A stretch of 7,424 nucleotides of DNA from a virus (Duplodnaviria; Heunggongvirae; Uroviricota; Caudoviricetes): positions 1 to 7,424 of the IMG/VR virus record IMGVR_UViG_2645728091_000002; one strand, written 5' to 3'. Positions 1 to 7,424 of the stretch are shown piece by piece (the stretch's first letter is position 1; every line of letters begins with the position of its first letter). Under the pieces are notes generated by a model. The model did no database searches. It was given only the letters and a program-made list of their open reading frames with translations, and was not told the DNA's origin. A program made the translations under genes and the position numbers.

Positions 1-95
1 GTCGTCATGTGGGATGGCTGGTTCAGACTTCAGGATATGGTTGAGGGTTACCTGGTGATGAAGTCTCTTGATCAGGAGATCTGATCAAGAGACAG
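1..95 (+). mobile_element. Right end of an IS50-like (IS4 family) insertion sequence: transposase C-terminal fragment (1..84, continues upstream of the window) plus 19-bp terminal inverted repeat (77..95)
   Basis: Frame 1 of + strand reads VVMWDGWFRLQDMVEGYLVMKSLDQEI-stop (TGA 82-84), which resembles the Tn5 transposase C-terminus as I recall it (…WEGWEALQSKLDGFLAAKDLMAQGIKI). The reverse complement of 77-95 is CTGTCTCTTGATCAGATCT, matching the 19-bp IS50 inside-end sequence. The protein tail differs from IS50, so this is a relative, not IS50 itself. Lambda-O-like sequence begins abruptly at 96. Confidence 0.7.
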
Positions 96-458
96 CTCGT
101 TTTGAGGGATGCACCATTCTGAGATGTTTTTATTTGGTCCAAACATGCCGCCTTGCTGCTTGATAATATTCATTCTGACGAGCTCTAACTTGGCTTCATT
201 GCATCGTTTGACAGGTAACTTTGTAATCTCACTAAGTTGAGAATCGGTGATTCTGTCCATTGGTTTATTCCACCCATAGGTTTTACGCAGAATGGCAAGC
301 AGCACTTTAAACTGTCGCTTGGTCAGATCTGCGCCTGAATAAGCCTCAAGCAGCATATTTGATAGTCTGGCGTAACCATCATCGAGATCTGCCACATTAC
401 GCTCCTGTTCGGCAAAGTTACCTCTGCCGAAGTTGAGTATTTTTGCTGTATTTGTCAT
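72..458 (-). pseudogene. O: Lambda-type replication initiator O, truncated after codon 121 by the IS insertion; fused to 7 IS-derived codons (LSLDQIS) before a stop
   Basis: Translation MTNTAKILNFGRGNF…NISEWCIPQNE matches the lambda O N-terminal domain as I recall it. Likely start is ATG at 456-458 with GGAG 6 nt upstream; the 143-aa ORF in the track is an upstream over-extension. O-derived sequence ends at 96, inside ATCCCTCAAAACGAG (minus strand, 96-110), the left half of a lambda ori iteron (TCCCTC-AAAAC-GAGGGA). Full-length O is about 299 aa. Confidence 0.85.
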
Positions 459-492
459 AATTACTCCTGTGGATTGATCCAGTCTTTCTACA

Positions 493-771
493 TCAGGCCT
501 CAAAACTGTTGCAGCAGTCTTGAGGCTTTTCTTTTGTCAGCACCATGGCTACTTTCTTTGCCAGCTCCGCTAATTCCTCGTCTTCAACACCCCACTCCAG
601 CACAGCCAGAAGCATGGCCATCTTTGGGATAAAGCTGTCTTTCCATCGCGAAATTTGCGATTCATTAATCCCTAATGCATCAGCAACCTTTCGCTGACCA
701 CGTACAGCAATTCGATTTAGGATGTTGCTTGTAATTGCATTCGCTTTCTTGCGAGTACTTGTAAGTTGCAT
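493..771 (-). CDS. c1: cII-family transcriptional activator, P22 C1-type (92 aa)
   Basis: Sequence MQLTSTRKKANAIT…QISRWK…IPKM…LLAVLEWGV… has the cII/C1 family hallmarks (SQISRWK helix-turn-helix region, LLAVLEWGV). It sits between cro and O as in lambdoid phages. I chose the internal ATG (769-771) over the track's ATG at 858 because the longer form would run through nutR boxB and the 92-aa form has the family length. Confidence 0.8.
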   Translation of the reverse strand: MQLTSTRKKANAITSNILNRIAVRGQRKVADALGINESQISRWKDSFIPKMAMLLAVLEWGVEDEELAELAKKVAMVLTKEKPQDCCNSFEA

Positions 772-1145: not shown

Positions 1146-1796
1146 ATGAATACACAACTGATGGGTGAGCGTATTCGCGCTCGCAGAAAAGAACTCAAGA
1201 TTAGGCAGGCTGCCCTTGGCAAGATGGTTGGCGTGTCTAATGTTGCTATTTCCCAATGGGAGCGTTCTGAAACTGAGCCCAATGGCGAAAACCTATTGGC
1301 CTTAGCCAAGGCTTTGCAGTGTTCCCCTGATTACTTGTTGAAAGGAGAAGATAGTCTTTCAAACATTGCCTATCACAGCAGGCATGATCCAAGAGGTTCG
1401 TATCCTCTAATTAGTTGGGTAAGCGCAGGATGTTGGATGGAAGCTGTAGAGCCATATCATAAGCGTGCAATAGATAACTGGTACGATACAACCGTAGATT
1501 GTTCAGAAGATTCGTTTTGGCTGGACGTAAAAGGTGATTCGATGACGGCTCCAGCCGGTCTTAGCATCCCTGAAGGGATGATAATACTCGTCGATCCTGA
1601 AGTAGAACCTCGTAATGGGAAGCTGGTAGTGGCAAAGCTCGAAGGAGAAAACGAGGCAACTTTCAAGAAGTTAGTTATTGATGCTGGCAGGAGGTTTCTA
1701 AAACCACTTAACCCACAATATCCGATGATTGAGATCAACGGGAACTGCAAAATCATCGGTGTAGTTGTCGATGCAAAAATAGCAAACCTTCCATAA
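1146..1796 (+). CDS. c2: Prophage repressor, P22 C2-type (216 aa), LexA-like S24 autopeptidase C-terminal domain
   Basis: MNTQLMGERIRARRKELKIRQAALGKMVGVSNVAISQWERSE… is an HTH_3-type N-terminal domain and matches P22 C2 as I recall it. It has an Ala94-Gly95 cleavage site (VSAGCW), a GDSM serine motif (S132) and FKKL lysine (K174/K175), consistent with RecA-stimulated self-cleavage. Confidence 0.92.
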   Translation: MNTQLMGERIRARRKELKIRQAALGKMVGVSNVAISQWERSETEPNGENLLALAKALQCSPDYLLKGEDSLSNIAYHSRHDPRGSYPLISWVSAGCWMEAVEPYHKRAIDNWYDTTVDCSEDSFWLDVKGDSMTAPAGLSIPEGMIILVDPEVEPRNGKLVVAKLEGENEATFKKLVIDAGRRFLKPLNPQYPMIEINGNCKIIGVVVDAKIANLP

Positions 1797-1854: not shown

Positions 1855-1925
1855 ATAAAATTTAAGTTTTCTTCAAAAACACTCTTGACCACAAATTAAA
1901 GAAATCTTAAATTTAAGTCATCAGC
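1855..1925 (+). promoter_or_regulatory. OL operators and pL promoter (leftward early promoter, + strand in this window)
   Basis: -35 TTGACC (1885-1890), 17-bp spacer, -10 TAAATT (1908-1913). Operator-like repeat aattaaagaaatcttaaat (1894-1912) matches the OR copy at 17/19 positions. Further ATTTAAG half-sites at 1860-1866 and 1911-1917. Confidence 0.7.
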
Positions 1926-2114: not shown

Positions 2115-2414
2115 ATGACAGTAGTCATTACATATCTGGCTGACGATAACGCCAGAAATCGCCGCAGAGCACGCAGACAGGCTCAACGTGAACAGGCAAT
2201 GCAAGAGCAGCGACTGGCGCGAAAGATTGCGCTAAAGCTCTCTGGTTGCGTCAGAGCAGATAAAGCAGCATCACTCGGAAGCCTTCGCTGCCAGAAGGCA
2301 GAAGAAGTCGAGCGTAAACAGAACCGTATTTACTACAGCAAGCCACGCAGTGAAATGGGTGTGACTTGTGTTGGTCGCCAGAAAATGAAATTAGGCAGCA
2401 AACCACTTATTTGA
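2115..2414 (+). CDS. N: N-family transcription antiterminator (99 aa) with an atypical arginine-rich motif
   Basis: C-terminal two-thirds (…LARKIALKLSGCVRADKAASLGSLRC…ERKQNRIYYSKPRSEMGVTCVGRQKMKLGSKPLI) parallels the lambda N C-terminus (ERKNQRTWYSKPGERGITCSGRQKIKGKSIPLI) and the phage 21 N body as I recall them. The N-terminal ARM is DNARNRRRARRQAQREQ. GGAGG lies 5 nt upstream of the ATG. It is the first gene downstream of pL/nutL. Confidence 0.85.
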   Translation: MTVVITYLADDNARNRRRARRQAQREQAMQEQRLARKIALKLSGCVRADKAASLGSLRCQKAEEVERKQNRIYYSKPRSEMGVTCVGRQKMKLGSKPLI

Positions 2415-2422
2415 GGTGATAT

Positions 2423-2872
2423 ATGGAAGAACAGGCAAATAAGATTCTCATAGAACTATTGCAAAAAGCCAGTAATGGAATAGACGCGGCTGTCTCATTT
2501 AGCCAGGCACAGATTCCTGATGTTGTTCATCAGTTGCTGCTATGGAATATGGTTGATAGCCTGATTAAAACATTAATAGCCATTTTAACAATCCCGCTGG
2601 TTTTCTGGTTTATGAAGAAACAGTACCAAAAAGTTGAAATTGGTAAGTTCGATGATGAAGGATGGTCATGGGATAAGGGGAAGACTAAATACAAACCGAC
2701 TATGATTTGGGAAAGTAACGGTGAGATTAGTTTTCTAATCTTACCATTAGCTGCAGTTTTTGTTCTGTGGGTAAGTTTTATTATTGCTGTAGTAACCAAT
2801 ATGACATGGTTAGAAATTTTGCTGGCTCCAAAGCTTTACCTTATCGAATATGCAGCATCATTGGTTAAGTAA
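2423..2872 (+). CDS. Small membrane protein (149 aa, two predicted TM helices), function unknown; occupies the position where lambdoid phages carry sieB-type superinfection-exclusion genes
   Basis: GAGGTGA Shine-Dalgarno overlaps the N stop codon, with the ATG 8 nt after N, so it is translationally coupled. Hydrophobic segments LIKTLIAILTIPLVFWFM and ISFLILPLAAVFVLWVSFIIAVV. Visibly more A+T-rich than the flanking N and Red genes. I do not recognise the sequence as a named protein. Confidence 0.75.
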   Translation: MEEQANKILIELLQKASNGIDAAVSFSQAQIPDVVHQLLLWNMVDSLIKTLIAILTIPLVFWFMKKQYQKVEIGKFDDEGWSWDKGKTKYKPTMIWESNGEISFLILPLAAVFVLWVSFIIAVVTNMTWLEILLAPKLYLIEYAASLVK

Positions 2873-2876
2873 TTTC

Positions 2877-2902
2877 AGGCCGCATAGTCGGCCTTTATTT
2901 TT
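2877..2902 (+). terminator. Rho-independent terminator after the membrane-protein gene (tL1-like position)
   Basis: AGGCCG(2877-2882)-CATAGT-CGGCCT(2889-2894) stem followed by TTATTTTT. Confidence 0.7.
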
Positions 2903-2931
2903 GGCACTAACAACAGAATAAACACTGCACT

Positions 2932-2959
2932 GTGTATTCATTCCAACGAGTGAATACAC
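2932..2959 (+). other. Stable stem-loop (11-bp stem with one G·U, 6-nt loop) in a non-coding segment; not followed by a U-tract
   Basis: GTGTATTCATT (2932-2942) pairs with AGTGAATACAC (2949-2959); loop CCAACG. No convincing ORF or promoter around it. Confidence 0.5.
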
Positions 2960-3021
2960 GGAGCAATGTCGCTCGTAACTAAACAGGAGCCGACTTGTTC
3001 TGATTATTGGAAATCTTCTTT

Positions 3022-3048
3022 GCCCTCCAGTGTGAGGGCGATTTTTTA
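3022..3048 (+). terminator. Rho-independent terminator just upstream of the ea10-like gene
   Basis: GCCCTC(3022-3027)-CAGTGT-GAGGGC(3034-3039) stem followed by GATTTTTTA. Confidence 0.7.
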
Positions 3049-3067
3049 TCTATGAGGATATGAATAG

Positions 3068-3436
3068 ATGTCAAACATCAAAAAATACATCATTGATTAC
3101 GACTGGAAAGCATCAATAGAAATTGAAATCGACCATGACGTAATGACAGAGGAAAAACTTCACCAGATTAATAATTTCTGGTCAGACTCTGAATACCGAC
3201 TCAATAAACACGGCTCTGTATTAAATGCTGTATTAATCATGCTGGCGCAACATGCTCTGCTTATAGCAATTTCAAGCGACTTAAATGCATATGGTGTTGT
3301 GTGTGAGTTCGACTGGAATGATGGAAATGGTCAGGAAGGATGGCCTCCAATGGATGGTAGCGAAGGAATAAGAATTACCGATATCGATACATCAGGAATA
3401 TTTGATTCAGATGATATGACTATCAAGGCCGCCTGA
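3068..3436 (+). CDS. ea10: Acidic 122-aa early-left-operon protein; probable counterpart of lambda Ea10
   Basis: GAGGA lies 9 nt upstream of the ATG. The gene sits immediately upstream of cIII and has the 122-aa length I associate with lambda Ea10. The assignment rests on position and size; I do not reliably recall the Ea10 sequence. The C-terminal third is strongly acidic (DWNDGNGQEGWPPMDGSEG…DSDDM). Confidence 0.6.
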   Translation: MSNIKKYIIDYDWKASIEIEIDHDVMTEEKLHQINNFWSDSEYRLNKHGSVLNAVLIMLAQHALLIAISSDLNAYGVVCEFDWNDGNGQEGWPPMDGSEGIRITDIDTSGIFDSDDMTIKAA

Positions 3437-3460
3437 GTGCGGTTTTACCGCATACCAATA

Positions 3461-3482
3461 ACGCTTCACTCGAGGCGTTTTT
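3461..3482 (+). terminator. Putative terminator or RNA structure upstream of the cIII ribosome-binding site
   Basis: ACGCTTC(3461-3467)-ACTC-GAGGCGT(3472-3478), a 7-bp stem with one G·U, followed by TTTTTCGTT. Could also be part of the cIII leader structures known to modulate cIII translation in lambda. Confidence 0.45.
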
Positions 3483-3508
3483 CGTTATGTATAAATAAGG
3501 AGCACACC

Positions 3509-3673
3509 ATGCAATATGCCATTGCAGGGTGGCCTGTTGCTGGCTGCCCTTCCGAATCTTTACTTGAACGAATCACCCGTAAATTACGTGACGGATGGAA
3601 ACGCCTTATCGACATACTTAATCAGCCAGGAGTCCCAAAGAATGGATCAAACACTTATGGCTATCCAGACTAA
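3509..3673 (+). CDS. cIII: CIII (54 aa), inhibitor of FtsH-mediated CII degradation
   Basis: [54 protein letters not shown] matches lambda CIII as I recall it. AAGGAG lies 6 nt upstream of the ATG at 3509. The 78-aa ORF in the track is an in-frame upstream over-extension. Confidence 0.92.
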   Translation: MQYAIAGWPVAGCPSESLLERITRKLRDGWKRLIDILNQPGVPKNGSNTYGYPD

Positions 3674-3785: not shown

Positions 3786-4156
3786 CCCCCTTTCCTGTTT
3801 TCCTAATCAGCCTGGCATTTCGCGGGCGATATTTTCACAGCTATTTCAGGAGTTCAGCCATGAACGCTTATTACATTCAGGATCGTCTTGAGGCTCAGAG
3901 CTGGGCGCGTCACTACCAGCAGATCGCCCGTGAAGAGAAAGAGGCAGAACTGGCAGACGACATGGAAAAAGGCCTGCCCCAGCACCTGTTTGAATCGCTA
4001 TGCATCGATCATTTGCAACGCCACGGGGCCAGCAAAAAAGCCATTACCCGTGCGTTTGATGACGATGTTGAGTTTCAGGAGCGCATGGCAGAACACATCC
4101 GGTACATGGTTGAAACCATTGCTCACCACCAGGTTGATATTGATTCAGAGGTATAA
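3740..4156 (+). CDS. gam: Gam (138 aa), RecBCD inhibitor
   Basis: [80 protein letters not shown]… is near-identical to lambda Gam as I recall it. The internal Met (MNAYYIQ…) corresponds to the short Gam form. Confidence 0.93.
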
Positions 4157-7328: not shown

Positions 7329-7424
7329 CTGATGAATCCCCTAATGATTTTTATCAAAATCATTAAGTTAAGGTAGATACACATCTTGTCATATGATCAA
7401 ATGGTTTCGCCAAAAATCAATAAT
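7329..7424 (+). mobile_element. Outside end of an IS10-type element (Tn10 family); element continues beyond the window, transposase gene expected on the + strand just past 7424
   Basis: CTGATGAATCCCCTAATGATTTTTATCAAAATCATTAAGTTAAGGTAGATACACATCTTGTCATATGATCAAATGGTTTCGCCAAAAATCAATAAT matches the IS10 outside-end sequence as I recall it, including the terminal CTGATGAATCCCC, the near-palindrome around AATGATTTT…AAAATCATT and the TTAAGTTAAGG IHF-site region. Flanking 9 bp TGTTTAGCG (7320-7328) resembles the IS10 target consensus NGCTNAGCN. Confidence 0.85.

Follow-up and report, generated by a model that had tools for sequence, protein, structure and literature searches.

PreS, first named LPR1, is an Hfq-enriched small RNA of phage lambda encoded between ral and ea10 (Silverman, Nashef, Bruner, Noy, Melamed, bioRxiv 10.1101/2024.10.31.621285). 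On Northern blots it gives bands of ~88 and ~68 nt, the shorter form (PreS-S) being the more abundant and overlapping the main read peak. It is a lytic-only RNA, appearing no later than 10 min after induction and absent in lysogens, and its 3' end is the intrinsic terminator tL2a. PreS opens the dnaN ribosome-binding site and raises a dnaN reporter ~4-fold, and it lowers an alaS reporter ~2-fold; both effects are backed by compensatory mutations, and deletion of the seed reduces lambda DNA replication. The preprint labels the first PreS base '+1', and its full lpr1 deletion begins directly 3' of the central hairpin described below (primer P969). In the accessible portions of this preprint we found no PreS promoter, 5'-end mapping, nuclease or biogenesis mechanism, and the same portions, supplements included, gave no description of a covarying upstream hairpin or of P22-type relatives. 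Phages of true P22 type do not appear in its conservation list, for which an identity of 92% or more was required.

The DNA analyzed here (the window) is a 7,424-nt stretch of a Caudoviricetes record, IMGVR_UViG_2645728091_000002, and holds the immunity and early-left region of a lambdoid prophage (Table 1). The plus-strand order is N, ORF, spacer, ea10, cIII, kil, gam, bet and exo, and the 195-bp gap behind the membrane ORF is therefore read in the pL direction. This ORF had no Pfam and no PADLOC match and its PHROGs family carries no assigned function; its location would suit a superinfection-exclusion or moron-type gene. At the left end of the window (1-95) lies the C-terminal end of a transposase-like ORF, finishing in MKSLDQEI and a stop. 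The reverse complement of AGATCTGATCAAGAGACAG (77-95) is presumably the IS50 inside end, and a perfect 14-bp inverted repeat at 63-93 encloses part of this region. The IS end cuts the O gene, so the prophage is probably defective. On the minus strand, 7374-7424 match the Rfam model RNA-OUT, the IS10 antisense RNA (61.4 bits, cut off by the end of the window), and a predicted IS10 element borders the right side.

Table 1. Features of the window around the ral-ea10 spacer (positions are those of the window).
Feature	Position	Strand	Basis or remark
O, truncated	72-503	-	ORF list
cII, cro		-	ORF list
cI	1146-1796	+	
pL-like promoter	1885-1913	+	promoter scan
N	2115-2414	+	
Membrane ORF, 149 aa, phrog_3054	2423-2872	+	ORF list; PHROGs match 7e-59
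Non-coding gap, 195 bp	2873-3067		between membrane ORF and ea10
Terminator 1 (candidate)	2877-2902	+	stem 2877-2882/2889-2894, U-tract 2895-2902
A-rich linker with relic GAATAA (2916-2921)	2903-2925	+	alignment against annotations
Central RNA hairpin	2926-2965	+	directly 5' of PreS, overlaps its first 5 nt
PreS (LPR1), full-length 88-nt form	2961-3048	+	88/88 identical to lambda 34011->33924
PreS SL1, GAGC/GCUC 4-bp hairpin	2961-2974	+	flush with 5' end; 4 invariant pairs
PreS-S, processed ~68-nt form (approximate)	2981-3048	+	band size, arithmetic from 3' end 3048
PreS SL2, ACAGG/CUUGU, loop AGCCGA	2983-2998	+	alignment; RNAalifold
Seed region	2996-3013	+	18 nt deleted in the authors' seed-deletion phage; primer sequences
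Terminator 2 = tL2a (candidate), PreS 3' end, Hfq-binding module	3020-3048	+	scan; preprint; HK620 label
ea10 (DUF2528), next pL-operon gene	3068-3436	+	Pfam 1.8e-47; lambda map
cIII with Rfam thermoregulator element	3496-3554	+	followed by kil, gam, bet, exo

A preliminary description of this DNA had the gap replacing the ral region. It is instead homologous to lambda's own ral-ea10 intergenic region (33905-34086 in lambda), with a 140-nt block, 2912-3051, that is 100% identical to the lambda spacer and takes in all 88 nt of PreS, 49 nt upstream and 3 nt downstream. BLAST found the segment in 331 phage records, lambda among them. Judged by this similarity, the gap is the conserved lambdoid ral-ea10 spacer; because such a spacer normally lies 3' of ral, it does not replace that gene, and it is the membrane ORF, unrelated to sieB, orf28 and ral, that fills their slot. 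PreS has here the placement that it has in lambda, on the pL strand of the early-left operon between the ral slot and ea10.

The segment as a whole folds much better than its shuffles (z = -4.8). A covariance-model search, proposed earlier as a check, returned no Rfam family at the gathering threshold in 2873-3067; permissive thresholds gave sub-threshold matches only, among them RyhB (18.3 bits, cut-off 55) and mir-137 (20.3 bits, cut-off 56.7), and no model of Rfam 15 matched this PreS. In the literature, we found no earlier sighting of the spacer in the EHEC Hfq CRAC study of Tree et al. (2014) or in a 2026 preprint on the Pas sRNA, and no mention of it in work on lambda mosaicism and lambda CRISPRi. 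The small RNA of this spacer is already known; what is new concerns the covarying hairpin at its 5' boundary and a diverged P22-type family. We consider it highly probable that the segment is the ral-ea10 spacer encoding PreS, that PreS is promoterless and excised from the pL transcript, and that the hairpin sets its 5' end.

The ends of PreS were read from the authors' cloning and in vitro transcription primers (P810, P1103, P1104 and P1108). Those ends, GAGCAATGTCGCTCG... and ...GGGCGATTTTTTA, map to 2961 and 3048, a span of exactly 88 nt, and an exact-match test followed the lambda sequence from +1 (GAGCAAUGUCGCUCG...) to the tL2a U-tract. A small RNA within the N-antiterminated pL transcript, as first suggested for this segment, has thus been shown in lambda for an identical sequence, but the suggestion misplaced its details. 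The RNA is not at the central hairpin but fills the 88 nt from there to where the second terminator ends; that terminator (3022-3048 as first described) is canonical, yet it is not a separate flank but the sRNA's own 3' end.

SL1 lies inside a 19-nt block, GAGCAAUNUCGCUCGUAAC, that is invariant in 8 independently retrieved phages and was itself the search pattern for viral contigs. The GAGC of SL1 is also wanted by the lower stem of the upstream hairpin, and the two pairings compete. The 5' end of PreS-S, placed from band size only and to within a few nucleotides, falls in the single-stranded GUAACUAAAC linker. SL2 covaries (CGAG/CUCG and CAGG/CCUG in other variants), with 99% of its cells paired and 2 pairs changed on both sides, and its 3' arm extends into the seed. 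Both sites of the published seed mutations, CUG at 3000-3002 (M1, dnaN pairing) and GAA at 3010-3012 (M2, alaS pairing), are intact here, and GUUCUG (2997-3002) does not vary among the 8 phages retrieved independently; of the 22 aligned variants, 21 have it. The duplex predicted with the dnaN leader reaches -33.3 kcal/mol, against -14.4 +/- 3.0 for shuffled seeds and -26.3 for the best shuffle, and by this prediction the present copy of PreS keeps the dnaN pairing.

In a fold of the long transcript, CAGAAUAA (2914-2921), which lies 5' of the hairpin, pairs with the seed stretch UUGUUCUG (2995-3002). This pairing could mask the seed before processing in lambda-type spacers; it is not conserved in P22-type variants. 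The GAATAA of the linker was considered as a conserved anti-seed element and rejected, since in P22 and Sf101 these six bases make up the final sense codon and the stop codon of the orf87-family gene upstream.

By pattern (a GC-rich stem of 5 bp or more, a short loop and 5 or more U residues within 8 nt), 2877-2902 and 3020-3048 both pass as candidate Rho-independent terminators, in agreement with the preliminary description and in a window where terminator-like sites are frequent (16 vs 7.2 +/- 2.7 expected). The tL2a stem (GCCCUC/GAGGGC, 3022-3027 with 3034-3039, extendable to 3020/3041; loop CAGUGU) is followed by a U6 tract (3042-3047) and preceded by the U-rich UCUUCUUU, forming a 3' module of the Hfq type. 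Four different complementary versions of this stem occur among the variants, and the homologous hairpin is labeled 'tL2A' in the HK620 record. Further terminator-like hairpins lie at 3460-3479 after ea10 and at 3810-3827 after kil, consistent with the other members of the tL2 cluster (tL2b, tL2c/d) in the HK620 annotation.

In this prophage, transcription leaving N would meet terminator 1 (AGGCCG/CGGCCU, loop CAUAGU; -9.7 kcal/mol) before any other intrinsic terminator; taken alone, the hairpin has an unremarkable folding energy (z = -1.4). Besides the copy here, mEpX2 and many Stx1a/Stx2a phages have this terminator intact, behind three ORFs that are not related to one another. The lambda equivalent is degenerate and forms no hairpin (z = +0.41), the 3' end of ral overlapping the site, and in 933W the terminator is absent. 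It therefore belongs to the spacer and not to the core module.

Directly 5' of PreS, an 11-bp stem-loop had been described at 2932-2959. The structure is real but longer: 14 contiguous pairs join 2930-2943 with 2948-2961 and, past an A.A mismatch, 3 more join 2926-2928 with 2963-2965. It folds at -24.9 kcal/mol (z = -6.6), and none of 200 shuffles folds as well. The lower stem, (U)GC-A-C / G-A-GC(A) with its A.A mismatch, is invariant; the upper stem is hypervariable, with 9-13 bp and a loop of 4-9 nt. At least six upper-stem alleles, each self-complementary (UGUGUAUUCA, AUAGCAGA, AAUGACCA, AAUGCGGAAU, UAUCGACU and AUAGCUGA), stand between the near-invariant GCAC and GAGCAAU of the lower stem, and every hairpin allele but two forms 13-16 pairs.

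Alignment across related phages, the comparison that had been proposed for this stem, revealed compensatory change. Among 22 sequences, both partners have changed in 9 of the 15 hairpin pairs, and 93% of hairpin cells are paired, compared with 29-48% when the partners are slid (0 of 500 shuffles reach the observed score); these cells are not 96 independent events, as ~5 whole-stem replacements and 1 single-pair flip underlie them. RNAalifold independently recovers the upper stem, SL1 and the covarying SL2. A tie between the hairpin allele and the N type or the upstream gene was also considered and rejected, the same allele occurring with different N and upstream genes.

Could the hairpin region instead be promoter DNA, with PreS an independent gene? 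Many Hfq-associated sRNAs are primary transcripts, and the '+1' of the preprint would suit such a start. However, a pattern scan found no sigma-70-like site on either strand of 2873-3067, as had been noted before, and -35/-10 elements placed for a start at 2961 matched at best 5-6 of 12 positions across 28 distinct upstream contexts, with no conserved -10 and no shared hexamer in any hairpin allele. The would-be -10 bases covary with the opposite stem arm, a pattern that marks a structure rather than a promoter, and in lambda PreS is missing from lysogens and comes up when pL is derepressed. On these grounds a promoter of its own is improbable, and we discarded it. Covariation of Watson-Crick pairs is by itself blind to strand, and the minus strand folds well too (z = -4.36), as would be expected if the hairpin acted as a palindromic protein site or as a minus-strand RNA or terminator. 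That reading is very improbable given the 40 G.U cells found against 1 A.C cell, so that the hairpin belongs to plus-strand RNA, where pairing is better (93.0% vs 81.2%). In addition, loop and arm lengths vary, so the half-site spacing needed by a dimeric protein is not kept, and for the minus strand we found no T-run after the hairpin and no conserved ORF or promoter.

The remaining alternatives concern what the region produces. If it were the first terminator of the tL2 cluster and nothing else, the discrete Hfq-bound RNA, validated targets and phage phenotype reported for lambda would have no place, and a bare terminator would constrain neither the invariant GUUCUG nor the covarying SL2; two pattern-perfect intrinsic terminators and the classical tL2a annotation speak for this reading, which we hold to be extremely unlikely. 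An ATG-initiated 29-codon frame does exist at 2966-3055, but that it encodes a small protein has next to no chance: the ATG is kept in 13 of 79 distinct variants (changing to ATA or ATT), P22-type variants carry a 13-nt frame-shifting insertion, and the peptide is without a Pfam match. The earlier judgment that the gap holds no credible ORF stands, ATG loss and the lack of a family match ruling this frame out. We give more room to a hairpin that plays no part in PreS maturation and serves as a 3' stabilizer of the upstream mRNA or as an insulator against seed pairing, a reading that we nevertheless think unlikely. The hairpin does lie 4 nt after the upstream stop codon in P22, Sf101 and epsilon34, and the minimum free energy fold of the long transcript pairs 2914-2921 with the seed, so insulation could matter; yet it travels with PreS rather than with any given upstream gene, and its invariant lower stem uses the first bases of PreS. 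The stabilizer role overlaps our preferred explanation, because one cut would give both effects.

The explanation that we prefer is that PreS has no promoter of its own and would be cut out of the pL transcript, to which the lack of a placed promoter and the lytic-only expression point. The reported 5' end of PreS lies on the 3' side of the stem beside the conserved A.A mismatch, in a manner that resembles phage RNase III sites, and we infer that the hairpin marks or creates this end through processing of the pL transcript, acting as the cis element that would set the 5' boundary. Most likely, an endonuclease would cut at the 3' base of the hairpin, by the A.A mismatch, with RNase III-like geometry. 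The upstream mRNA would be left with a 3' hairpin cap, and the GAGC thus released could pair with GCUC to form SL1 right at the new 5' end. The 68-nt form would arise from a second cut, close to 2981, where the linker is single-stranded and offers a plausible RNase E site. Until N antitermination sets in, terminator 1 may limit transcription into PreS, and it would be dispensable for the module.

Several points weigh on this proposal. The lambda allele, with 14 + 3 pairs around the A.A mismatch, has a geometry compatible with an RNase III site but not diagnostic of one; the other alleles add a 1x1 mismatch and reach 13-15 pairs overall, and their 9-11 contiguous upper-stem pairs are short for a classical RNase III substrate. 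The +1 context, G/GAGC, is a poor RNase E motif. As the '+1' of the preprint may rest on read coverage and band size instead of mapped 5' ends, its coincidence with the hairpin base may be off by a few nucleotides. N-modified polymerase should read through tL2a, and the formation of the PreS 3' end under antitermination is a weak point.

Comparison with other phages outlines the mobile unit. Phages 933W, Sf101, HK620 and HK106 share only ~2927-3049, that is, the hairpin and PreS, and their flanking genes are unrelated. Upstream stand ral, L0079, hkaP, a P22 orf87-like gene (Sf101 gp33) or the membrane ORF, and downstream ea10, cIII, P22 gene 17 or a 322-aa ORF. From these neighborhoods, hairpin and PreS appear as a module set between unrelated genes. 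A pattern scan of viral contigs with the 19-nt PreS 5' block listed 80 further loci, which together with the other retrieved loci gave the 79 distinct module variants; these combine hairpin alleles, PreS body types and terminator stems in different ways. P22-like Salmonella phages carry a diverged copy of PreS with ~80% identity, starting at PreS +1, and diverged homologues were located in P22 (locus L004, 1201-1302), epsilon34 (locus L005, 1201-1303) and many IMG/VR loci (L010-L129). The P22/epsilon34 homologue keeps the 5' 19 nt and the GUUCUG seed and has a 13-nt insertion before the terminator; its hairpin alleles differ, and so do its terminator stems (GCCGCUC/GGGCGGC and GCCCGGC/GUCGGGC). 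Of 5426 complete E. coli genomes, 2237 carry the hairpin together with PreS as an unannotated module, in at most 6 copies each, and BLAST places the module in most Stx-converting phages.

A separate contig scan with a 16-base pattern gave 120 loci, mostly chance matches, the genuine ones being lambda-type copies. The assemblies of several unrelated taxa (Pseudoxanthomonas, Lacrimispora, Bradyrhizobium, Shewanella, Chromatium, Pseudomonas and Neobacillus; loci include L132, L145, L149, L154, L170, L175, L189, L200, L205 and L208) contained exact lambda copies of this region. Several of these copies sit on tiny, low-coverage contigs, so contamination with lambda control DNA is the most likely source.

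In K-12, the antisense strand across the dnaA-stop/dnaN-start junction (L252 338-369; NC_000913 ~3882337-3882368) runs collinear with the 2996-3022 stretch of PreS, 27 of 31 aligned positions being identical and 4 being gaps. The alignment score is 35 for the lambda type (best shuffle 27) and, over 45 nt, 29 for the epsilon34 type (best shuffle 23). The likeness suggests either capture of host sequence or convergent extension of the pairing. Taken jointly, the propositions that the hairpin is a dedicated maturation element, that the P22/epsilon34 copies belong to a PreS family, and that PreS is a captured antisense copy of dnaA-dnaN are tentative, and we put their chance at somewhat short of even. 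If the capture were true, PreS would be a trans-encoded 'antisense' RNA of host origin.

The main gain of this work is correct filing, in that an unannotated gap is recognized as the PreS gene. With the module in so many E. coli genomes and in most Stx phages, any SOS induction in strains that carry it would be expected to yield an sRNA that increases DnaN, the sliding clamp of the host. The covarying hairpin at the 5' boundary, the missing promoter, the P22-type family and the antisense likeness to dnaA/dnaN offer handles on PreS production, and the hairpin alleles are natural compensatory variants for testing it.

Of the known systems, lambda PreS with tL2a is the closest. The 88-nt sequence, strand, seed, terminator and place directly 5' of ea10 in the pL operon are the same. 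The differences are that ral lies upstream in lambda and the membrane ORF here, and that terminator 1 is degenerate in lambda and intact here; also, the RNA has been detected in lambda, whereas in this prophage it is predicted from the sequence.

DicF of Qin, a P22-like cryptic prophage, is likewise an Hfq-dependent, trans-acting prophage sRNA in an early operon, promoterless and with essential host targets. It lies upstream of a cell-division inhibitor gene and its nucleases are known; in 1990, Faubladier and colleagues reportedly found it to be excised from the polycistronic dicB immunity-region operon through RNase E and RNase III or through termination. DicF and PreS share no sequence similarity, and DicF represses ftsZ whereas PreS activates dnaN. 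RNase III hairpins are also familiar from phage polycistronic transcripts, among them the T7 R1.1-type, lambda N-leader and lambda sib sites. The hairpin described here resembles them in its ~16-18 helix positions, its conserved internal mismatch, an RNA 5' end that falls beside this mismatch in the 3' arm, and its setting in a long early transcript; it differs in that cleavage is putative and in that the upper stems of most alleles are shorter than in classical substrates. StxS of the Shiga-toxin phages is, according to the discussion of the preprint, transcribed from pR' in the late region as a primary RNA, and lysogens produce it (10.1101/2024.10.31.621285). As far as that discussion goes, StxS and PreS are alike as phage sRNAs whose 3' end is a terminator under antitermination and which act on host mRNAs through Hfq; they have no sequence similarity, and StxS belongs to the late region and PreS to the early-left operon.
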